NCBI GenBank assembly: GCA_012646845.1
Contig: GCA_012646845.1_4707.1
Source: a phage
Strand: one strand, 5' to 3'
DNA: 48,431 nucleotides
The notes under the pieces were generated by a model. It saw only the letters and a program-made list of their open reading frames with translations, searched no databases and was not told the DNA's origin. Both the position numbers and the translations under genes were made by a program. Below are positions 4,177-45,655 of the stretch, in pieces (position 1 is the first letter of the stretch; every line of letters begins with the position of its first letter).

Positions 4177-4201
4177 AAAAAAGGGTGGGGCGAACCCCAC
4201 C
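4177..4201 (-). terminator. intrinsic terminator-like hairpin GGTGGGG-CGAA-CCCCACC followed by U-run on minus strand
   Basis: perfect 7-bp stem, tetraloop, A-run 4177-4182 on plus strand. Confidence 0.6.
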
Positions 4202-4226: not shown

Positions 4227-4649
4227 TTAATTCAGTGACGTGTACAACGCATAACGACTATAGATCTCAACCGCTGGTCCGTTATGCGTTAACAGACCAT
4301 CTCGGTTGTAGTATTGGAAAAATGAATAACGTTTGTCGAAGTGATAAACGAAAGCAATGTCTTTGTCAAGACCTGTGATGCGCGGTCTGTTTTTATCTAG
4401 CAATGCTTTGACTTTTAACAGTGTTGCCGCACGTGCTTTAACATTAGGGATTAATCCATCACAGTCGATATAAACCGTGTAACCTGTTTCAGATGTTGCG
4501 ACGGTTGTATTGCGATTGATGCGGAAGATTTTTGTTTTGTATGTATCATCTTCAAGAATTGGGTTTTGTTTTTCGTATTTTCGTTTACGCAGAAATTCTA
4601 CAACGGTAATATAGTTAGCGGTGATATGTCCGGTTATAGCTTGTAACAT
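4227..4649 (-). CDS. hypothetical protein
   Basis: ORF track; conserved leader with AAGAGGA SD immediately upstream. Confidence 0.65.
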   Translation of the reverse strand: MLQAITGHITANYITVVEFLRKRKYEKQNPILEDDTYKTKIFRINRNTTVATSETGYTVYIDCDGLIPNVKARAATLLKVKALLDKNRPRITGLDKDIAFVYHFDKRYSFFQYYNRDGLLTHNGPAVEIYSRYALYTSLN

Positions 4650-4795
4650 CTTGACATCCTCTTATATTGGATTGATTACAGTTATCTTAAATAGGCGATA
4701 AGATATCTTGCTCTTATCACCTAGGTTGCGTTTTGTTAATAACAAAACGCATCGCCTTAGTGACCTATGTCACTAAGGTAATATAGCCGTGAAAT
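4650..4795 (-). promoter_or_regulatory. conserved promoter/leader element copy A: CTATATTAC motif, two inserted hairpins, conserved 28-nt RBS leader
   Basis: 4650-4677 and 4777-4794 are identical to 32967-32994 and 33039-33056; copy A carries an extra ~51 nt (4726-4776) forming two perfect hairpins. Confidence 0.45.
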
Positions 4796-4830
4796 AGACT
4801 GCGTTAACAAGAAATAAAACAGCATAAAAC

Positions 4831-4870
4831 CTCCTCCCCCATCCTTCAAGAGGACGGTGGGAAGAGGGAG
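4831..4870 (-). terminator. pyrimidine/purine-arm hairpin downstream of gene 4876..5277
   Basis: CCTCCTCCCCC...GGTGGGAAGAGGGAG imperfect inverted repeat (pairs with G-U in minus-strand RNA). Confidence 0.35.
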
Positions 4871-6155: not shown

Positions 6156-7457
6156 TTAACTAATATAAAGTTCAGGATCGTAAGGCGCTAACGATACACT
6201 GGCGTTATGCATTGCTTTCATCATAGTGTTCATGAAAACGTTGTTTACACCGGTGATCTCTGCCCCGATCGCGTCTGGGGTTGGAGCCATCGCGTTACCG
6301 CAACAGGTAGCACAGTATTCCAACGGACCCGCTTTACAGCGCTGAGGATCACGTAACTTGATGGTTTGTCCTTCCAAGGAAGCGAATAATTCAGCATCAA
6401 TAAGTTTAAGCGCTGCGCCATCGATCATGTAACGGCCGACGAGCAGTTTATCTTTGATGTGGTCGCGGTTTACCGTGAACAGAATATGTTCTTGGGTACC
6501 GCAGTCGTCCATCGTGATCTTAAGGTTCTGTGTTGCACGTTGCGATTCTTTAGCCGTTTGTCCAGCTAAAGCGGTCAACGCACCACGCGAGAACGAACCA
6601 GCACGTGCACTGTTGTTGTACTCCGCCCAATGGTCGACGCGCATCCCTTCGGCCAGGCTGTGCGTGATAACGTTACGTTTACCAGGGTCAACGAAGTCGG
6701 CTTCAACCCCCATCATGATGTGTGTTTTCTTTCGAGTATTACCGAAACTCTTACCGGGGTTAATATAGAACCCTTCCGATTCATCGCCCTTAAAGGATTC
6801 CTTATCCATTTTGGTTAGCGTGGCTTCGAGTTTGATCAGTTCTTCAGGCGTAAACTTACCTTCCTCTTGCAAGCGCGCTAACTCTTTATCACGATAGGCA
6901 ATAATATCATCATCGACCGTTAACGCTTTATCGCTCATTGAAGGCACAATTAAGCGGTTAATGGCGGTTAATGCGCTGATATTGTTGGTGAATTTCTTCA
7001 CCTCGCTTGCGTACAGTGGACCAATCGGACGTTCGTTAGGATCGGGTATTCCCTCTTCGGGATCATCTGCTACGCGCGGTGCAATCAGTGATTCTAGTGT
7101 ACCGCTGGTTAACCGTCCTGCCTGATATTCAATCTGAATACCGAAAGCGTCATAAAGGACGTACATATTGAACAACGCTTCACCGAAGGTTGTGGTGGTT
7201 GTGTTCTTAACCGACGGTAGATCGCCAGGCGCAAGCTCCAACGGATCCCAGAAATTCAACAAGGGTTTTGTTGGTTCTGTTTCCCATTGGTGTTCTTCAC
7301 CGTCGATGGTAACCGTAACGATGTTACCTTGACGACGTAATTTAGGCTGATACTTCTCAGCGCCGCCTTCCGTAAAAGCAAATGCGTCGTTAATCCACTC
7401 AAGATAACGGTAGTGCCCTTCACGCAACGCGTAAAGGAAATAATCACGAGGTGTCAT
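6156..7457 (-). CDS. multisubunit RNA polymerase beta-prime-like subunit, C-terminal fragment
   Basis: ITMDDCGTQEHI matches bacterial beta-prime VTEDDCGTHEGI; downstream C-x2-C-x-G (CATCCGN) and AIGAE segments at the spacing seen in RpoC; AAGGAG SD. Confidence 0.6.
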   Translation of the reverse strand: MTPRDYFLYALREGHYRYLEWINDAFAFTEGGAEKYQPKLRRQGNIVTVTIDGEEHQWETEPTKPLLNFWDPLELAPGDLPSVKNTTTTTFGEALFNMYVLYDAFGIQIEYQAGRLTSGTLESLIAPRVADDPEEGIPDPNERPIGPLYASEVKKFTNNISALTAINRLIVPSMSDKALTVDDDIIAYRDKELARLQEEGKFTPEELIKLEATLTKMDKESFKGDESEGFYINPGKSFGNTRKKTHIMMGVEADFVDPGKRNVITHSLAEGMRVDHWAEYNNSARAGSFSRGALTALAGQTAKESQRATQNLKITMDDCGTQEHILFTVNRDHIKDKLLVGRYMIDGAALKLIDAELFASLEGQTIKLRDPQRCKAGPLEYCATCCGNAMAPTPDAIGAEITGVNNVFMNTMMKAMHNASVSLAPYDPELYIS

Positions 7458-15176: not shown

Positions 15177-15818
15177 TTAGATGTACTGCTTACCGCCCAC
15201 GAAGGAAGTTAGCCAGTTCCCACTGACAAGCTGTGATACCCAGCCAGGCACTGCCCTGCCATTCTGGCTCATGACATTACCACACCAGCCAGGGAATCCG
15301 GGACGGATATAATAGAAAGTTAAATTGTAGAGATGGCAATTCCATACCGCAACGTTATGTTTACCAGAAACCGCTTTAAAGACAAACGCAACGGGTAAAG
15401 GCGACGATAACAATTCGGTCACAGGGACGGCCGACCAGTTCGCATTCGCATTCCATGGTTGCCAGGTATGGCTACGCGAGTCGCAAAATACGTTACCGTT
15501 GTTACCGCGCCCACCCGCATGCCACCACAGCGACGGACTCATGTTCTTAAGTGAGGTAAATTGCTGTGGTGGAATATTAGGAATAATAACAGGGTTGGTA
15601 CCTTGCCCATGTTTCTTTTCTTTTGCGTTTACATACCCACTTATCGATTCGAGGTATTTGACACCAGGATAATTGTTCTGGACTTGTGTCGCAATATCAC
15701 GGACATCAAACGTCCAGCAGATCATGGTGTTGTAGTAAGCATCGGTGTTGTCGTACCAAGCGTTACCATCTTGTAAACGTGCGCCACTATTCGGTGTTTT
15801 ATCTGTGCTTATAGCCAT
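15177..15818 (-). CDS. hypothetical protein, paralogue sharing C-terminal module with 15925..16590
   Basis: C-terminus GFPGWCGNVMSQNGRAVPGWVSQLVSGNWLTSFVGGKQY nearly identical to neighbour; ~100-bp near-identical DNA. Confidence 0.65.
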   Translation of the reverse strand: MAISTDKTPNSGARLQDGNAWYDNTDAYYNTMICWTFDVRDIATQVQNNYPGVKYLESISGYVNAKEKKHGQGTNPVIIPNIPPQQFTSLKNMSPSLWWHAGGRGNNGNVFCDSRSHTWQPWNANANWSAVPVTELLSSPLPVAFVFKAVSGKHNVAVWNCHLYNLTFYYIRPGFPGWCGNVMSQNGRAVPGWVSQLVSGNWLTSFVGGKQYI

Positions 15819-15924
15819 GTTATTGTCCTATACTACGATGATTGAGATATCGAATGTCGGACGCTTGGTGCCGTCTGGTAGTACATACAGAAACACCCAC
15901 AGATAAAACAATAACTCCCATCAA

Positions 15925-16590
15925 TTAAATTGATGTTAGATACTGCTTACCTCCGACAAACGATGTCAACCAGTTCCCACTGACAAGCTGTGATACCCAG
16001 CCAGGCACTGCCCTGCCATTCTGGCTCATCACGTTACCGGCCCATCCCGGAAAACCAGGTCGGAAAATATATACTTGAATATGTGTTAAAGCGTTATCAT
16101 TACCTCCACCAACAGCAACATTACGACGTCCGGATGATGGGAAATATTCTTTTAAGAACAGGGGATCGTTTGCCAATAAAGAAGCAGGCCAAGGATTAGC
16201 GGATGCGTCAACATCGAATTCGGTCCATCGCCATTTGCGCCCAGTATCGAACCAGGTTGACGTACCACCGCCACGCACCGCAAGATTGCGTGCGTCACGG
16301 GCACTGTATATTGATTCGATGTTGCGCCACCCACCTTTTGCGACGTTTGCCGCATAGCAAATCGCATTACCACCATTCTTCTTTTCGTAAACGGTTCGTT
16401 TGATATGAACACGGTCGATAAACGCTTCACCGTATTTGTTGACGAGTGTTTGCGCGATATCACGAAGATCGTGCATATGAAAGGCGATGTCTTCGTTGTG
16501 GAACCACGTTGTCGGGTTCCAAACGGTGCCGTTTGGTTCGGCACACATCGATCTGATGTTGTTGCGTTGATTAATCGCGATAAAGCCCAT
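15925..16590 (-). CDS. hypothetical protein, paralogue of 15177..15818
   Basis: start set to ATG 16590 (GAGGTGGACC SD), aligns with N-terminus of paralogue. Confidence 0.6.
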   Translation of the reverse strand: MGFIAINQRNNIRSMCAEPNGTVWNPTTWFHNEDIAFHMHDLRDIAQTLVNKYGEAFIDRVHIKRTVYEKKNGGNAICYAANVAKGGWRNIESIYSARDARNLAVRGGGTSTWFDTGRKWRWTEFDVDASANPWPASLLANDPLFLKEYFPSSGRRNVAVGGGNDNALTHIQVYIFRPGFPGWAGNVMSQNGRAVPGWVSQLVSGNWLTSFVGGKQYLTSI

Positions 16591-16653
16591 GGTCCACCTC
16601 GTTCCTGTTCTCGAAGGAAATTTCATACGATGACGCCATAACAGCTCCCCCAT

Positions 16654-16695
16654 CCTCCCTTCCCTTACGGGTTGGGAGGATGTAAGGGAAGGAGG
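16654..16695 (-). terminator. long hairpin CCTCCCTTCCCTTAC...GTAAGGGAAGGAGG downstream of lipoprotein gene
   Basis: ~14-bp inverted repeat read directly. Confidence 0.5.
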
Positions 16696-16705
16696 AACTA
16701 CTTAA

Positions 16706-17253: not shown

Positions 17254-17670
17254 TTACACAGTTTTAGGAAATTCCGGCCAATCGATATTTGGCGCGGCGT
17301 CGGTATCGATAGCCGTCACCTCGTCAATGTAATCCAAAACAGCATTAAGTTGGGCTGTTTCTTCCGGAGTCAGTTTTCGCCCGGCCCGTAATTTTAACTG
17401 AATAAGATCAATGGAAGCCAGCGCAGAGTCAATCAGAGATTTTTTCATCTGTTCTGCCTCGGCGACGAGATCTTCGTGTTGCCGCTCGGGTTCCGGAGGT
17501 GCGGTAAACTCACCATTTGAGTATAACCAACCTATTCCGGGCGACACAGCTCCCGTATCGCTAATGCCGACCAACTGTTGATTGTCAGATACATTGAGTT
17601 CTGCTTCGCCATCGTAAACGATCGTGTTTACTACCACCCCATTTTCAATAACAGCGTATGATGTACTCAT
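17254..17670 (-). CDS. tfa: tail fibre assembly chaperone (lambda Tfa-like)
   Basis: C-terminus AEAEQMKKSL...LDYIDEVTAIDTDAAPNIDWPEFP matches lambda Tfa C-terminal domain; ATG overlaps fibre stop (TAATG). Confidence 0.8.
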   Translation of the reverse strand: MSTSYAVIENGVVVNTIVYDGEAELNVSDNQQLVGISDTGAVSPGIGWLYSNGEFTAPPEPERQHEDLVAEAEQMKKSLIDSALASIDLIQLKLRAGRKLTPEETAQLNAVLDYIDEVTAIDTDAAPNIDWPEFPKTV

Positions 17671-20600
17671 TACATAAACTCCTCGATGATGCAAATCCCG
17701 TCAGCGCCACGCCCACCACGCATAACGGTTCCAGTGTAACCGTTATCGTAAGCGCCGCCACCGCCCGAACCTCGTGCGAGGCCGTTTGACCCGCCACCAA
17801 CAGCTGCGCGACCACCGCCACCCCAATATGACGCACCCCCACCACCACATACAGGAAATGCGCCAGCTTGACCGTCATCACCATCACCACCTGAAATGCG
17901 TATATCCCCGGTACTAGGTGTACCACCACCCCCACCACCAGTGTTTGTGACGGTTGTTTTTCCTGCGCCTTGCCCACCGGGAGCAGTTAGTAGGGATGCA
18001 AATTTACTATCCCCGCCCCTGTTTCCAATTGTTGCCCCGGAACCACCAGTGCCACCAGAACCAATTACGACAGAATAACTAGTAGCTGTTACCGCTATAA
18101 CCGAAATTACTGTTCCACCGGCCCCACCGCCAGCACCAAAAAACGTTTCGCTGTTGGAAAAAGCCTGGCAACCACCGCCGCCGCCTCCACCACCGGTTAA
18201 TATTACTCTAATCCGTTTTGTTCCTTGTGTTGGGGTGTACGTCCCTGACGATGTGAAAACACGCGTATTCAGTAAACGTCCGACATATCCGCTAGAATCG
18301 GCTAAACCAAGATCTTTAGCTGCTAACGTTATATTAGCTGTACCGTCAAACGGTTTACCGTTAATCGTGCGCGCGGTCTGCAACTTCGTGGCCGTTGCTG
18401 CGTTTCCTGACGTATTCTGGTTTCCCGCGGCGTTAACACCTGGTAGATTGATGTTCGCACTACCGTCGAAAGATACCCCACCAATGGTGCGGGCTGTTTT
18501 CAGTTTTGTCGCCGTGGCAGCATTACCGGTTGTGTCTTGGTTACCGGTGGTGTTTACCCCAGGCAGGTTGATATTGGCTGTTCCGTTAAATGAAACACCG
18601 CCAATCGTCCTTGCTGTTTGCAGCCTCGTTGCGGTTGCTGCGTTCCCCGTGGTGTTTTGGTTACCCGTTGCATTCACGCCCGGGATACTATCCTTAGATG
18701 TGTAGATCTGTGCCCATTCCGACCAGTTAGAATCGGCTGCATCACGACGTGAACGTAAATAAGCCGGAGCGTGTGTGCCCGAGGTACCTGACCAACCAAT
18801 GAGGATTTCACCTTCACCGGCCGATGAAGCACCTTTGAGGTGAATAACGTTACCATAGGCGGTTGGGTAGCCGTTACTGTACGCTTCATACATCTGGATA
18901 CCGGTATTACTACCTTGGGTCGCATTAGCTAACGCGGTAACACGACCTTTGGAGGCGAGAGCGGTAATACTGAAGCTAATGTCCTTAGTACCGTCAAAGG
19001 CGACCCCATTAATCTTCCGTGCTGTTTGGAGTTTCGTGGCAGTAGCCGCGTTACCAGAGGTACTCTGATTACCTGCTTTGTTCACGCCAGGCAAATCAAT
19101 GTTGGCTGTTCCATCAAAGGACACACCCCCTATGGTTCTCGCTGTCTGGAGTTTTGTTGCTGAGCCAGCGTTTCCGGAAGTACTTTGATTACCTGCCGCG
19201 TTGACGCCCGGTAGGTTAATGCTAGCAGAACCATCAAAAGAAACTCCACCTATCGTGATCGGTGTTTTCAATTTCGTGGCTGTCGCAGCGTTACCGGTTG
19301 TATTTTGATTGCCTGTCGCATTAACGCCCGGTAATGCAATATCCGCTGTTCCGTCAAAGGCAACGCCGCCGATTTTACGGGCGGTTTGTAGCTTGGTTGC
19401 ACTAGCAGCGTTACCACTGGTATTCTGGGTGCCAGCTTTGTTAACACCCGGGAGATCGATGTTAGCAGAACCATCGAAGCTGACGCCACCTATCGTTCTT
19501 GCAGTAGCGAGTTTAGCTGCTGTGGCTGCATTGTTACCCACTTTCAGCCAATCATCCCATGGACCATCCTGGCCGTTCCACGATGCCGTTAAACTACGTA
19601 CGTAAATATTGCCAGTACGTACAGTGTAACGTTGCGTTCCACCGAATTGTCCAGCAGGGAGCACTTCAAGGTAACCTGCGGCATTTGCTTCAGGGAAATT
19701 GTGGGCGACGTCCGCATTCGTCGTTATTGGTTTAGACCAAATACCCACAGACGCTTCAACCGGACCGTAAGTATTCAGATTTGCGTCGGTGGGGAGCTGT
19801 CCTCGAAAACGTTGGAATTGTGTCGCCGATAACCCCAACGTTGTTTGCATGCTTTCAATGCTGGATTGCTGAAGTAACGTCCGTGCTGTCGACGTAATCA
19901 CGGTAAGCGCAACTTTATTAACACCGGTGAAATACGGGAGTTTGTCTGCTGATGTCGCTAAACCTGAAAAGGCGGTCAGTAATGCGTTAAGGGGCTGCTT
20001 CCCAGCTAACGCATTTGTTACCGTCGTTGCGAAATTAGGATCGCTTCCTATAGCTCGAGCCAGCTTATTAAGCGTATTTAGCGTCGCTGGTGACGAGTCG
20101 ATCAGCGCCGTGATCGCACGCATCACAAATTCCGTGTTGGCTATCTGTCGACTGCTATTGTTAACTGCTGCGGTGGGCGCTGCTGGCGTACCAGTGAATA
20201 CAGGGCTATTAAGATCCGCCTTGAGGGCGATGAGACGTTTAAGCGCTTCAACATCAACTTTCAGGTTTTCCCATCCGATGAGAGAACCACCACTGCTGGC
20301 ATGGTAACGGTTGTACCAGAAGTCACCGTTAACGCCTAAAAAGAATATTCCCTTCTCTTCGTTTTGTGGACCGGAACTATTTCGTGACGAGCTGATGTAA
20401 TTGATTTCAATAAGACCAGTAAACGTCACTCCTGGGATTATTTTGTTGTCTCCAGCTGACTGTGATACTTGGTAAATCCCCGGGGTTGCGGCTTTAACCC
20501 ATGTTAAGAATTCTGTTACTCCAGCGGTACCGCTAAAATTCTTAACGTCGGTAAGTATCGCCCCATAACCGAACATACCGGGTAGAGCCACTCGTCCGCT

Positions 20601-21188
20601 GGTACGGTCACGAATATCTGTCGCAACAACAGGCAATTGTTTACGAACGGCATTAACCGCTTTAGGCGTGGCCGATTTTGTCTCGTCATCGCTATCGGTT
20701 TCATTACTTAGAATAGTTAAACCGCGTGTAGCAGTAGTTGCATCAGGAAGAAATGCGTTATCCAACACCTTAAGCTGTATTGCACTCGTATTACTAACAA
20801 CGACATGCACCTGACAGTTAAGAACGCTGGTTGCGCCTTCGGCAGGCGTAGGCTTATATCTTTCTGGTGCACTGCAGACGGCAATCAGAACACCTTTATC
20901 GTCGTACAGACCGATCTCACGTACCCAGAACCCACCTTGACCAGCAGGAATAATACCCTCAACGACAATCCTGGTTGTACTATCGCCATCCGCATGGATA
21001 TTAGAAACTTCCCCACGATAAACTTCGTGAACAAGTGCTGTTTGGCTGGCGGTCGGGGTTGGTGTCGAGCCGTTACCATCACCAACGGCAAAGTGTGTGA
21101 TTTTTAGTTTCTCACCGTCGGGAAGTAACGCAGCGGTGATACGTTCTGCTCCTTTATCGGTAACTACCGTTTTATATGCTGTACTCAT
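17670..21188 (-). CDS. long tail fibre protein: P2 gpH-like N-terminus, two blocks of ~38-aa fibre repeats, Gly-rich C-terminal tip
   Basis: N-term MSTAYKTVVTDKGAERITAA...HFAVGDGNG; repeats GNAATATKLxTARTIGGVSFDGxANIxLPGVN; C-terminal poly-Gly motifs; start set to ATG 21188. Confidence 0.85.
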   Translation of the reverse strand: MSTAYKTVVTDKGAERITAALLPDGEKLKITHFAVGDGNGSTPTPTASQTALVHEVYRGEVSNIHADGDSTTRIVVEGIIPAGQGGFWVREIGLYDDKGVLIAVCSAPERYKPTPAEGATSVLNCQVHVVVSNTSAIQLKVLDNAFLPDATTATRGLTILSNETDSDDETKSATPKAVNAVRKQLPVVATDIRDRTSGRVALPGMFGYGAILTDVKNFSGTAGVTEFLTWVKAATPGIYQVSQSAGDNKIIPGVTFTGLIEINYISSSRNSSGPQNEEKGIFFLGVNGDFWYNRYHASSGGSLIGWENLKVDVEALKRLIALKADLNSPVFTGTPAAPTAAVNNSSRQIANTEFVMRAITALIDSSPATLNTLNKLARAIGSDPNFATTVTNALAGKQPLNALLTAFSGLATSADKLPYFTGVNKVALTVITSTARTLLQQSSIESMQTTLGLSATQFQRFRGQLPTDANLNTYGPVEASVGIWSKPITTNADVAHNFPEANAAGYLEVLPAGQFGGTQRYTVRTGNIYVRSLTASWNGQDGPWDDWLKVGNNAATAAKLATARTIGGVSFDGSANIDLPGVNKAGTQNTSGNAASATKLQTARKIGGVAFDGTADIALPGVNATGNQNTTGNAATATKLKTPITIGGVSFDGSASINLPGVNAAGNQSTSGNAGSATKLQTARTIGGVSFDGTANIDLPGVNKAGNQSTSGNAATATKLQTARKINGVAFDGTKDISFSITALASKGRVTALANATQGSNTGIQMYEAYSNGYPTAYGNVIHLKGASSAGEGEILIGWSGTSGTHAPAYLRSRRDAADSNWSEWAQIYTSKDSIPGVNATGNQNTTGNAATATRLQTARTIGGVSFNGTANINLPGVNTTGNQDTTGNAATATKLKTARTIGGVSFDGSANINLPGVNAAGNQNTSGNAATATKLQTARTINGKPFDGTANITLAAKDLGLADSSGYVGRLLNTRVFTSSGTYTPTQGTKRIRVILTGGGGGGGGCQAFSNSETFFGAGGGAGGTVISVIAVTATSYSVVIGSGGTGGSGATIGNRGGDSKFASLLTAPGGQGAGKTTVTNTGGGGGGTPSTGDIRISGGDGDDGQAGAFPVCGGGGASYWGGGGRAAVGGGSNGLARGSGGGGAYDNGYTGTVMRGGRGADGICIIEEFM
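18290..18700 (-). repeat. coding tandem repeats (~114 bp) within tail fibre gene, block 2
   Basis: imperfect direct repeats visible in DNA and protein. Confidence 0.6.
18950..19520 (-). repeat. coding tandem repeats (~114 bp) within tail fibre gene, block 1
   Basis: imperfect direct repeats visible in DNA and protein. Confidence 0.6.
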
Positions 21189-21195
21189 GGTGTTT

Positions 21196-21723
21196 TTATC
21201 CTGGATAAATAGTGATGATATCACCAATGACCGTTGTGGCACCGGCGTAAAGATGAGCCGGAGATACATCGTGTTGGTTTGTCACGGTAAGATCTAATCG
21301 ACCACGCCAAACCATGGAGGTATTCGCGATGGGGATAGAAATCTTTTTGGATATATCGTCACGAAAATCAATAACAGTGGCAAGGGTAACTGCATCAAAG
21401 TCAACGTCGGGATCAAAGACGAACCCGTATTGATCTGAAATCGCCCGAATAATCGCGTGTATAGTTGTTGTCTTAACAGACTCTAAAACGATTTTTATTG
21501 GTATTCCTAGAAATGCCTTCGCAATATCGCGTCGAGCGTAAACGATAAAACTTTCACCGTTCCACCTTGTTCCTTCATTTGCTGTGACGATCACTTTTGC
21601 CCTGTTAGCACCAGAACTTCCATCCAAGACTAATGTAAGATCGGAGCTGTTGAATACGCTACTGTTACGTCTGTTTATCAACGACGTCAGTTCGTCTTTC
21701 CATGGCGGGTAAAGTGAACACAT
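21196..21723 (-). CDS. short protein consisting of the shared fibre N-terminal module
   Basis: YARRDIAKAFLGIPIKIV; start set to ATG 21723 (GGAGGAGGG SD). Confidence 0.65.
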   Translation of the reverse strand: MCSLYPPWKDELTSLINRRNSSVFNSSDLTLVLDGSSGANRAKVIVTANEGTRWNGESFIVYARRDIAKAFLGIPIKIVLESVKTTTIHAIIRAISDQYGFVFDPDVDFDAVTLATVIDFRDDISKKISIPIANTSMVWRGRLDLTVTNQHDVSPAHLYAGATTVIGDIITIYPG

Positions 21724-32168: not shown

Positions 32169-32591
32169 TTAACGTACGGCTGCTACGCTGTTAGCGCATG
32201 CCTGAATATCATCGGTATTTACGATGATGGTTTCGTTAAATGCACGAATACGCGCACGACGTGCTTCTTTAAGGCTGGCGATTGCGTTAGCAGCTTGGTC
32301 TGTATTCGCAAGGCTAATAACTGGGATCAAGCGCATGTCAGGACTGCAGATATTCAATGCTTGGTATACACGCCCATTGATTCCTACGGTATCAGACATC
32401 GGATAGTGCGCACGACATTGAAATTGACCCATGACAACAAGCGAACGATCGGAGATGCCAATCTGATAACGACCGTCTTCGCTGTAGGTGTAGCAGTTAT
32501 TCCCACGAGCCATCCAGTTAGCTTGTGCTTGTGCACTAACAAAAGCCAGGGTAGCGACGATAGCAAATACGATATTTTTGAACAGTTTCAT
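32169..32591 (-). CDS. secreted hypothetical protein (signal peptide)
   Basis: MKLFKNIVFAIVATLAFVSAQAQA; AAGGATC SD. Confidence 0.6.
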   Translation of the reverse strand: MKLFKNIVFAIVATLAFVSAQAQANWMARGNNCYTYSEDGRYQIGISDRSLVVMGQFQCRAHYPMSDTVGINGRVYQALNICSPDMRLIPVISLANTDQAANAIASLKEARRARIRAFNETIIVNTDDIQACANSVAAVR

Positions 32592-32609
32592 GATAAAGAT
32601 CCTTATTGA

Positions 32610-32642
32610 AATAAAAACGGTATAAAGCCCCCATTTAGGGGG
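32610..32642 (-). terminator. hairpin CCCCC-ATTTA-GGGGG followed by U-rich tract on minus strand
   Basis: read directly; lies just downstream of 32649..32966. Confidence 0.5.
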
Positions 32643-32648
32643 ACCTGA

Positions 32649-32966
32649 TTAGTTTGCACTTAAGAAATGACCCAGAACCGTTACGATTGGAAACAGTCCC
32701 GTAACCGTATTATCGCCCGAAAACATCATCTTTGAGTCGTTAACGGTGATGAAACGGATGTCGGTTGCAGACCCATCGATAGCGACAAAACGCATCGAGT
32801 TCGGTGGAAGATCCTCAACAACTTCCACGAGATGTTCACGATTTTCAAAGGCTTCTTTAACACGACGCATGAAACGAATCAATGTTCCTTCAGCGTCGGC
32901 TTCCAAATGACCTAGGATATCGCGATTATTACGAATAGCGAATACAGCCATTTTAAACATACACAT
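32649..32966 (-). CDS. hypothetical protein
   Basis: ORF track; conserved leader identical to that of 4227..4649. Confidence 0.6.
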   Translation of the reverse strand: MCMFKMAVFAIRNNRDILGHLEADAEGTLIRFMRRVKEAFENREHLVEVVEDLPPNSMRFVAIDGSATDIRFITVNDSKMMFSGDNTVTGLFPIVTVLGHFLSAN

Positions 32967-33056
32967 CTTGACATCCTCTTATATTGGATTGATTGCTAAT
33001 AATTCAAGGTGAAGCCAATGACTCCATTGCTTCACCTAGGTAATATAGCCGTGAAA
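32967..33056 (-). promoter_or_regulatory. conserved promoter/leader element copy B (CTATATTAC motif, hairpin, conserved RBS leader)
   Basis: 32967-32994 and 33039-33056 identical to copy A; motif overlaps stop codon of 33036..34028. Confidence 0.45.
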
Positions 33057-34028
33057 ATTAATGCATTGACTCACGTCTTTGCTACATGGGGGCTGAATCT
33101 CGTCGATGCGTTTAACCACAACCTCAGGGAAAAGTTGGAGGATTTCATCAGGTGGTGTCGTACCTTCTGTCCAACGATAACGTTCAACCTTTTCGATGCG
33201 TGGACTCCCTCCGACGTCAGCGATACGAAAGATACAGGCGATACCTAAATCGAAACATACGCTGTAAATATCTTCCGTGCCTCCTTTATCGGCAAGTATT
33301 TTCGCAAAATGCTCGTTATCGGGAAGAATGGCTAAATTACGGATACACCAAACATTATCACCCATTTCTTCAAGTTTTGGGTAGGTTAAAGTGTGCCCGT
33401 AGCATGTTAACCATCGATGATTTTCTAGGCGGAAGTCCTTATCTCCTGGCCGATAACCCAGTATCACCTCGGTGTAGAAGAGATTAGGCATATTGAGCAG
33501 TTCTCTAATCGTTGGACCGGTATGCTCCCAGAGACAGATTTGTTTACGGTCTATATCGTAATCTGTGACGTTACTCACCTCCCAACTTATCGTAAGTTCA
33601 TCGACAACGTGCCAACCTAAAGCATGTTCACCACCAAGCAGATTAACAATAGCTGCTATCTCGTGCTTGTCAAATACCCCCAAATTCTGCGGTGGTTGCA
33701 TCGTACGTAATGGCTCCCATAACGCACTGTAATCATAGAGCAAATGACGACATAAACTTTTTGTTAGGGGGGTATGTTCAGTAAACAGTGGAAGAATCAC
33801 CGTATCCAACAATGGACGTAATGGATGATTGTCGGGTGGCAACGAAGCGTATAGCCGACTTTCCTTTTTAGGAATGTCGTAACCAAACCCGTAACGCTCC
33901 GAAATGAGTGCAATCAACACTTTTGCTATGCGATTACGTAGCATGCGATGGATATCATCAGTGTAACAGAATTTCGGTCTGTTACCACAAACGAAGGTGA
34001 AGTATCTGGGCGTTAGCGCAGCCATCAT
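33036..34028 (-). CDS. hypothetical protein
   Basis: ORF track; GAGGGAAAG SD. Confidence 0.6.
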   Translation of the reverse strand: MMAALTPRYFTFVCGNRPKFCYTDDIHRMLRNRIAKVLIALISERYGFGYDIPKKESRLYASLPPDNHPLRPLLDTVILPLFTEHTPLTKSLCRHLLYDYSALWEPLRTMQPPQNLGVFDKHEIAAIVNLLGGEHALGWHVVDELTISWEVSNVTDYDIDRKQICLWEHTGPTIRELLNMPNLFYTEVILGYRPGDKDFRLENHRWLTCYGHTLTYPKLEEMGDNVWCIRNLAILPDNEHFAKILADKGGTEDIYSVCFDLGIACIFRIADVGGSPRIEKVERYRWTEGTTPPDEILQLFPEVVVKRIDEIQPPCSKDVSQCINFHGYIT

Positions 34029-45388: not shown

Positions 45389-45655
45389 TTAAAAAGTACC
45401 CATGATCGATAGGGCAATATGGTCTTTATTCGCACGCGCTTGTAACGACATATCGAGACCGCTTTTCTTAATATGCCAGCGTGCCACCAGTTCCGGTTGG
45501 TCAACGGAATACAACCCTTCTCGATGTTGATTCAACCATTTAGCAATCGGATGCAATTTATCGGGATTGACCACACCCAATTCCAAGCCGCCAGGTGTTA
45601 ATGGTTTAGAATAAAAGTCAAGTGCGTTCCGTAAAAAGTCATCCTCGATGTTCAT
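45389..45655 (-). CDS. hypothetical protein
   Basis: ORF track. Confidence 0.5.
   Translation of the reverse strand: MNIEDDFLRNALDFYSKPLTPGGLELGVVNPDKLHPIAKWLNQHREGLYSVDQPELVARWHIKKSGLDMSLQARANKDHIALSIMGTF

Follow-up and report, generated by a model that had tools for sequence, protein, structure and literature searches.

The element on the minus strand of the window at 33056→32964 is very probably an early expression cassette of a Goslar-like phage, made up of a promoter for a virion RNA polymerase (vRNAP), a stem-loop and a ribosome-binding leader. The window is the whole stretch of phage DNA analysed, 48,431 nucleotides in length. The element is a real and largely expected regulatory element, and its promoter type is already known. 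Two of its features are mildly new and can be tested, namely the lineage's rule of a hairpin over the start site and the swapping of hairpin modules among early promoters.

In the mechanism that we propose, a virion-packaged multisubunit RNA polymerase, injected with the DNA, would use TTTCACGGCTATATTAC and start at G 33033. The transcript would open with a stem-loop whose first base is already paired, and this stem-loop may shield the early mRNA from 5′-end-dependent decay by host RppH and RNase E. An unstructured A/U-rich leader and the strong Shine-Dalgarno sequence AAGAGGA would then drive translation of a small lineage-restricted protein, and a terminator after the gene would close the unit, an early single-gene transcript that is self-contained. 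The same promoter and leader would serve a second, unrelated gene at 4794→4647, and the structured middle would be exchangeable among early promoters of the lineage.

In nucleotide comparison, the window matched Escherichia phage vB_EcoM_Goslar (91-95% identity), the window corresponding to ~82-129 kb of the Goslar genome. Judged by this identity, the window phage is a relative of Goslar, a nucleus-forming jumbo phage of the Chimalliviridae. According to its genome annotation, Goslar encodes a nuclear shell protein and split RNA polymerase beta subunits; several of its genes are annotated as RNA polymerase beta subunit, and the window ORF 6156..7457(-) lies inside a stretch aligned to one of them, gp078. 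We also compared the Goslar-like IMG/VR contigs IMGVR_UViG_3300011560_000001 (U1) and IMGVR_UViG_3300045988_173921 (U2) and the further Goslar-like contigs, from IMG/VR and from metagenomes, ERZ1026903, OGZS01000006, ERZ1643250, ERZ1026852, JACXXQ010000003, SKEV01002961 and QZLZ01003659, and used the whole Goslar genome for a genome-wide promoter count. All genes around the element are on the minus strand, and the element was therefore read as the reverse complement.

Two other regions of the window were also noted. About 0.9 kb at 15833-16700 had no megablast match in Goslar and holds a 242-aa ORF, 15925..16653(-). At its 3′ end (15941-16071), this ORF has 84% identity with the 3′ end (15184-15314) of the neighbouring 213-aa gene. 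This region looks like a paralogous gene insertion adjoining the tail-fibre region. Within the 1199-aa ORF 17670..21269(-), the segment 18330-19532 contains six diverged copies of a 195-nt unit, which are 66-71% identical and spaced mostly at 120 nt (40 codons).

Promoter type and distribution

Along the minus strand from 33056 to 32964, the order is TTTCACGGCTATATTAC CTAGGT G AAGC AATGGAGTCATTG GCTTCACCT TGAATTATTAGC AATCAATCCAATATAAGAGGATGTCAAG ATG. The promoter core TTTCACGGCTATATTAC of this element (copy 2; 33040..33056(-)) is an exact repeat of the core of a second element (copy 1; 4778..4794(-)), and TATATTAC is matched exactly within both cores, at 33040-33047 and at 4778-4785. The exact promoter repeat is 19 nt long, as the block TTTCACGGCTATATTACCT (33038-33056 = 4776-4794), and the chance expectation for such a match was 0.004.

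The early-promoter consensus sequences published for phiKZ-like phages, partly predicted and partly mapped, are TATATTAC for phiKZ, …TTTRARR_BTATATTACDWHDGTG for 201phi2-1, and TTTCARRYAKATATTATYWAAGTGWA for N1M2 and OBP (PMC7058600). Early promoters of AR9 have the form AAATATATATTAT-(6N)-G+1, and transcripts of phiKZ and phiR1-37 begin 6 nt past the consensus (PMC5312081). dRNA-seq and ONT-cappable-seq place an AT-rich block ~10 bp upstream of the start and a T-rich block farther upstream. The window sequence TTTCACGGCTATATTAC-CTAGGT-GA agreed position by position with the published phiKZ-like consensus, and our own scan of phiKZ found …TTTAAACAGTATATTAC-N6-G, with the same geometry, at known early regions. 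The T-rich upstream block was kept as TTTCACGR in most sites, and the TTTCARR/TTTYARR of N1M2/OBP lies at an equal distance. From these agreements we infer that the element is an early promoter of phiKZ-like phages, of the type that their vRNAP uses; by homology, transcription from it would be early. A G was the seventh base after TTAC in both window copies, in all 12 Goslar sites described below and also in the phiKZ sites. By the 6N rule, transcription would start at G 33033 in copy 2, within the conserved RTGA, and at G 4771 in copy 1.

A scan of the Goslar genome gave exactly 12 strong sites, with the consensus TTTCACGRCTAYATTAC-YTWNRT-GA, and the scores of these sites were cleanly separated from those of all other matches; a loose pattern found 11 of the 12 and only two other matches. 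All 12 were on the minus (coding) strand and all 12 were upstream of start codons. The genes behind them are gp004, gp021, gp040, gp046/047, gp075, gp105, gp159, gp175, gp182, chmA (the nuclear-shell gene), gp214 and gp200. Two of the 12 sites map inside the window, and this explains why the first-pass annotation, made from the window, saw two copies. Its reading of the element as a promoter with a 5′ leader at two genes is supported by the consensus match and by this genome-wide distribution. That reading had hinged in part on the presence of the element upstream of other genes, and in Goslar the promoter block precedes ten further genes.

The element thus resembles the early promoters of phiKZ, 201phi2-1, OBP and N1M2 and of the related AR9 and phiR1-37 in its AT-rich, extended -10-like TATATTAC, a block that reads ATATTAT in some phiKZ-like members. 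It shares with them the T-rich block ~10 nt upstream, the conserved G 6 nt after the AT-rich block, and the occurrence of a dozen to a few dozen copies per genome, on the coding strand, at early genes that include the nuclear shell gene. Unlike other phiKZ-like phages, the Goslar lineage follows an extended consensus of its own, TTTCACGRCTAYATTAC-YTWNRT-GA, in only 12 copies. It also has a hairpin over the start in most copies, an enrichment not found in the first 100 kb of phiKZ, and a 32-nt leader that two of the promoter copies share.

That the element is instead a host sigma-70 promoter, or a chance repeat, is extremely improbable. TATATT resembles a -10 hexamer and there is a weak 9/12 sigma-70-like match at copy 1, but the promoter scan found no sigma-70-like site at copy 2, and phiKZ-like phages transcribe independently of host RNA polymerase (PMC5312081). 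A chance repeat is excluded by the shuffle and chance expectations and by the conservation of the element in eight related genomes.

The upstream 10-15 nt of the Goslar promoters fall into sub-families: TTAATCCAACATT (gp004, gp182), CACAAATCC (gp021, gp159), TTGAAAAAAA-type runs (chmA, gp200; GGAAAAAA at gp214 and TAGAAAAAA at gp040), and CAGTTTA preceded by GTTCTATGCTGT (gp046, gp075). Such sub-families suggest duplication or gene conversion of whole terminator-promoter cassettes. At 49584-49772 of Goslar NC_048170, the annotated start of gp047 lies upstream of the early promoter (49725-49741), and a better start, GAGGATACAGTC-ATG, follows 57 nt after the predicted +1. The gp047 annotation therefore probably begins too early.

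An RNA-seq time course of Goslar has been published (bioRxiv 10.1101/2023.09.20.558163), and the predicted start sites are directly checkable against these existing data. The legend in that preprint for the chmA start site was compatible with the motif and too vague to serve as evidence, and it was set aside.

A leader shared by two unrelated genes

An A/U-rich spacer (32995-33006(-)) separates the copy 2 hairpin from the 28-nt leader AATCAATCCAATATAAGAGGATGTCAAG, which is found at 32967-32994(-) and again at 4650..4677(-) in copy 1. Extended by the ATG and a further base, the exact repeat reaches 32 nt (4646-4677 = 32963-32994). Expected matches in shuffles were 0.00, and the chance of an exact 32-mer pair in 48 kb was estimated at 6e-11. 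These exact repeats, of 28 nt (32 with the ATG) in the leader and 19 nt in the promoter, agree with the earlier observation that the same leader and promoter motif stand at both loci.

In copy 2, the leader carries the Shine-Dalgarno sequence AAGAGGA (32974-32980(-)), 7 nt before the ATG of a 105-aa gene (32649..32966(-)), a homologue of Goslar gp105 that is found in Goslar-like phages only. In copy 1, it precedes a 140-aa homologue of gp075 (4227-4649(-)). gp075 and gp105 are the genes downstream of Goslar's own copies of the two loci, and both are annotated as hypothetical. The two homologue proteins are unrelated to each other. Pfam and PHROGs searches of the flanking proteins assigned no family, and a tblastn search with the gp075 and gp105 homologues gave matches in Goslar only, the genes being lineage-restricted to Goslar-like phages.

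A terminator-like hairpin follows each of the two genes. Behind the gp105 homologue, AGGUCCCC…GGGGGCUU folds into a hairpin with a U-rich tail (32609..32646(-)). Behind the gp075 homologue, the fold is GGTGGGG-TTCG-CCCCACC, then CTTTTTT (4177..4201(-)), and the Goslar annotation has a terminator at the equivalent place. The copy 1 promoter is also preceded, just upstream, by a strong terminator-like hairpin with a U-tract (4811..4868(-); fold -33.6 kcal/mol), the GTTCTATGCTGT tail of which is conserved in relatives. Because terminators follow each gene, both units can be regarded as self-contained single-gene early units, and the gp075 and gp105 homologues in them are candidate host-takeover or anti-defence genes.

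Among Goslar, the window and the Goslar-like contigs examined, the leader occurred only at the gp075 and gp105 loci. Its restriction to two genes in every genome examined does not fit the earlier description of it as a general conserved element. Since the repeat ends at the start codon, the duplicated part is the regulatory cassette and not the gene. That unrelated genes have the same promoter and leader is probably due to duplication of the cassette or to its copying by recombination. The two leaders show no difference in the window, whereas those of Goslar differ at 2 of 31 positions, and in five of six genomes the two agree at a variable A/G position of the Shine-Dalgarno sequence. This concordant change is a weak sign of homogenisation by recombination, because it represents only one or two events. 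RNA-RNA pairing of the leader with an 11-nt antisense match in the Goslar gp182 early UTR was dropped as a candidate because antisense matches of 10-12 nt occur elsewhere in the genome too.

The gene upstream of copy 2, a 330-aa homologue of gp106 (33036..34028(-)), ends with TAG at 33036-33038, inside ACC-TAG-GTG; the reported overlap of the element with an ORF end is thus present in the window. The corresponding gene of Goslar and U1 has a TGA stop ~30 nt upstream of the promoter core. The window homologue has indels near its end, with one extra base just before the old stop, and the frameshifted gene gains 13 residues and runs through the promoter to the TAG. Because it is this window frameshift that extends the gene, the overlap is, by comparison with the relatives, incidental, window-specific and without regulatory meaning.

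The hairpin at the predicted start site

The copy 2 hairpin (33007..33037(-)) consists of a 5′ arm AGGTGAAGC (33029-33037), a 13-nt loop (33016-33028) and a 3′ arm GCTTCACCT (33007-33015). It occupies positions -4 to +27 relative to the predicted +1 and has a folding energy of -16.8 kcal/mol (z = -3.7 against shuffles). RNA from the predicted +1 keeps only the GAAGC/GCUUC and the inner AAUG/CAUU pairs. The full stem compared with the RNA from +1 gave -16.8 versus about -12 kcal/mol in the window and -13.2 versus -5.2 kcal/mol in Goslar, where a 5-bp stem only is left. A perfect hairpin with a nested CAATG/CATTG stem had been described here. The outer perfect 9-bp stem with a nested AATG/CATT was found, and this outer stem is invariant in six distinct sequences, whereas the nested CAATG/CATTG is not conserved: the inner stem breaks in 3-4 of the six and is confined to the window and its closest relatives. 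Of nine variable columns in the 98-nt copy 2 element, five are in the 13-nt loop (Fisher P = 0.0018). Four of the invariant stem pairs (AGGT/ACCT) precede the predicted +1, and a purely 5′-terminal RNA hairpin leaves them unexplained.

Copy 1 has three hairpins, HP1 (4755-4778), HP2 (4728-4750) and HP3 (4694-4721), all on the minus strand, with z = -5.8 to -8.0. In HP3, every pair from +1 onward was kept in nine genomes, and its stem changed only by G-C pairs becoming G-U on the sense strand. Two genomes have the 8-nt HP3 loop replaced in full (GCAAAATA to CATCGGGT), and the pairs upstream of +1 break in four of the nine. In RNA from the predicted +1, the stem of both window copies would begin within 0-1 nt of the 5′ end. 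The hairpin of the gp021 promoter had two compensatory double changes, which are modest evidence because only three sequences were available. The comparison across related leaders that had been suggested as a check showed compensatory pairs at gp021, G-U changes in HP3 and no covariation in the copy 2 stem, because that stem never varies. Taken together, copy 2, HP3 and gp021 point to a selected sense-strand structure that begins at the transcript 5′ end.

For the 45 nt after TTAC, the 12 Goslar sites had a mean z of -1.6, and 8 of them had p ≤ 0.05. The predicted +1 base was paired in 10 of the 12 early promoters, compared with 29% of shuffles (binomial P = 1.7e-4), a count which, like the 5′-terminal position of the stems in the two copies, presupposes the +1 predicted by the 6N rule. 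The pairing count peaked at offset 0 and dropped at once downstream. Two of the 12 promoters had no hairpin, and the mean folding energy of the first 40 nt at the 12 sites was no lower than that of random 40-mers from the genome. In the first 100 kb of phiKZ, hairpin enrichment was not significant (6 of 11 sites, P = 0.12), and a start-site hairpin is therefore not a family-wide rule. At one phiKZ early promoter, that of the chmA homologue PHIKZ054 (45568-45620), the 5′-terminal hairpin had z = -2.3, and that of Goslar chmA had z ≈ -1.9. The first-pass annotation had proposed gene-specific regulatory hairpins. This proposal is not supported, the start-site hairpin being common to most early promoters of the lineage and the same 43-nt hairpin module being found at different promoters in different genomes.

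A scan against Rfam 15 gave no matches for copy 2 and only sub-threshold chance matches for copy 1 (SNORA68 at 29.7 bits, with a gathering score of 43). An antiterminator, in which the 3′ arm of HP1 would pair with the 5′ arm of HP3, is not favoured for the promoter-started RNA, the MFE and centroid folds of which retain HP2 and HP3.

Protection of the early mRNA is the most economical function of the hairpin, because RppH and RNase E require single-stranded 5′ ends; 5′-terminal stem-loops stabilise E. coli mRNAs (PMC3997798). By this analogy, we tentatively suggest that the 5′-terminal stem-loop might stabilise the early mRNA. The main rival, on balance unlikely, is that the hairpin is mainly a terminator or insulator against read-through from the gp106 homologue, which the promoter-started RNA, without the 5′ half of the stem, would escape. 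This rival fits copy 2, where no other terminator lies between the upstream gene and the promoter, where four invariant stem pairs are upstream of the predicted +1, and where, in the window and in Goslar, the full stem has far greater stability than what remains of it in RNA from +1. It follows the logic of the PeSL (promoter-early stem-loop) cassettes of T4-type phages, the stem-loops of which act as terminators (PMC2839356), and terminators inside 5′ UTRs have been reported for phiKZ and 201phi2-1. However, no U-tract follows the stem (the tail is UGAAUUAUU), and a scan of 32500-33500 for intrinsic terminators found none, the copy 2 hairpin lacking the combination of a G+C-rich stem and a U-run. 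Copy 1 also retains its conserved +1 hairpin even though a strong canonical terminator precedes its promoter by 17 nt, and its pairs upstream of +1 are the ones that decay. The inverted repeat might also serve as a DNA operator at which a dimeric phage regulator turns early transcription off, as the palindromes overlap the start site and the conserved YTWNRTGA is part of their half-sites. We regard this as highly improbable: the spacing of the half-sites varies from 6 to 26 nt, the arms are not the same from promoter to promoter, and the sense-strand G-U wobbles and wholesale loop replacement fit a folded strand and not a fixed protein site. Protection of the early mRNA is the reading that we prefer.

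Module exchange and comparison with known systems

HP1 and HP2 of copy 1 form a 53-nt module (4721-4773) that is present in the window and U1 and absent from Goslar and U2, and the insertion sits exactly after TTAC. Both are perfect hairpins, with arms CCTTAGTGAC/GTCACTAAGG in HP1 and GCGTTTTGTTA/TAACAAAACGC in HP2. HP1-type palindromes straddle -7 to +3 and would be mostly outside the RNA from their own promoter. In U1, a 43-nt two-hairpin module ([C/G]TTCATGATGCCATGCATCATGAACGCGACGCGTAAGCGTTAC) lies directly after TATATTAC at the gp021 promoter, and in OGZS01000006 a 43-nt module identical to it at 42 of 43 positions lies at the gp075 promoter. A paralogous module of 39 nt occupies the gp200 promoter in Goslar, U1 and U2. 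Each module opens with a start-region copy of its own (CTTNNTGA…) and has TTAC or CAAC at its end, which leaves 7-14 nt of homology at either junction. Outside Goslar-like phages, the module sequences had chance matches only, without promoter context. An exchangeable structured middle between conserved flanks, as had been proposed from the two copies in the window, is thus seen in modules inserted or swapped among the early promoters of relatives.

Ectopic recombination between paralogous promoter cassettes would be the simplest explanation of the modules. It is very unlikely that the structured middles are small mobile DNA elements with site-specific insertion in the vRNAP promoter, between TTAC and the start region. 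Such elements would account for the 43-53-nt indels exactly after TTAC at three promoters (gp021, gp075 and gp200), their presence or absence among close relatives, the near-identity of one 43-nt module at two promoters in two genomes, and the module ends TTAC or CAAC, which resemble a target-site duplication. However, no transposase or homing enzyme is associated with the modules and the copies are few, the 7-14 nt of junction homology (TTACCTT…) suffices for ordinary ectopic recombination between paralogous promoters, and the copy 2 hairpin has no presence/absence variation among relatives. A wider reading, which we consider doubtful, takes the early-promoter cassettes as recombination modules, a phage-polymerase counterpart of the PeSLs of T4. 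Hairpin modules of 39-53 nt would be inserted or exchanged at the TTAC/C junction by recombination from promoter to promoter or by a promoter-targeting mini-element, and the start-site hairpin would be a lineage-specific mark of the early transcripts that arise within the early phage infection vesicle, for stability or possibly export.

In T4-type phages, a PeSL combines an early promoter, a stem-loop and a Shine-Dalgarno sequence with ATG beside lineage-restricted genes, and mediates modular shuffling (Arbiol et al. 2010, PMC2839356). Like PeSLs (PMC2839356; PMC4122927), the cassettes described here are repeated intergenic units of ~100 bp at which relatives differ by indels and exchanges, and their 3′ end is a Shine-Dalgarno sequence and start codon next to a lineage-restricted small gene. 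PeSL promoters, in contrast, are of the sigma-70 type, with an AT-rich UP region, and are used by the host polymerase, whereas the promoter of the element is predicted to be of the phage-polymerase type. The PeSL stem-loop lies between -35 and -10 or over -10 and is a terminator, whereas that of the element covers the start and has no U-tract. The PeSL work included mini-circles and gene shuffling, and the likeness drawn here is one of sequence. Because PeSL promoters are of the sigma-70 type and their stem-loop lies over -35/-10, PeSLs are the closest described analogue and not the same family.

The virion polymerase of coliphage N4 is a single-subunit enzyme that recognises a DNA hairpin of 5-7 bp with a 3-nt loop upstream of +1. 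The N4 hairpin promoters and the element have in common an inverted repeat at an early promoter and a virion-carried polymerase, which for the element is a presumption. Unlike in N4, the hairpins here are of variable size and follow the -10 block, and 2 of 12 promoters lack one. As in the 5′ stabiliser stem-loops of ompA and papA (PMC3997798), the stem starts at the first (predicted) transcribed base and, as predicted, leaves no single-stranded 5′ end for RppH or RNase E. The element differs from ompA and papA in that its stems are short (5-10 bp), in that some of the conserved complementarity precedes the predicted start, and in that stabilisation would be an analogy.

The whole finding is a modest extension of known biology and not a new kind of system. 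It provides, from 12 sites, an early-promoter consensus, TTTCACGRCTAYATTAC-N6-G, for the lineage of Goslar, which is the model nucleus-forming phage in E. coli. The start-site hairpins and their exchange suggest how the early mRNAs of jumbo phages may gain stability and how regulatory cassettes may spread.
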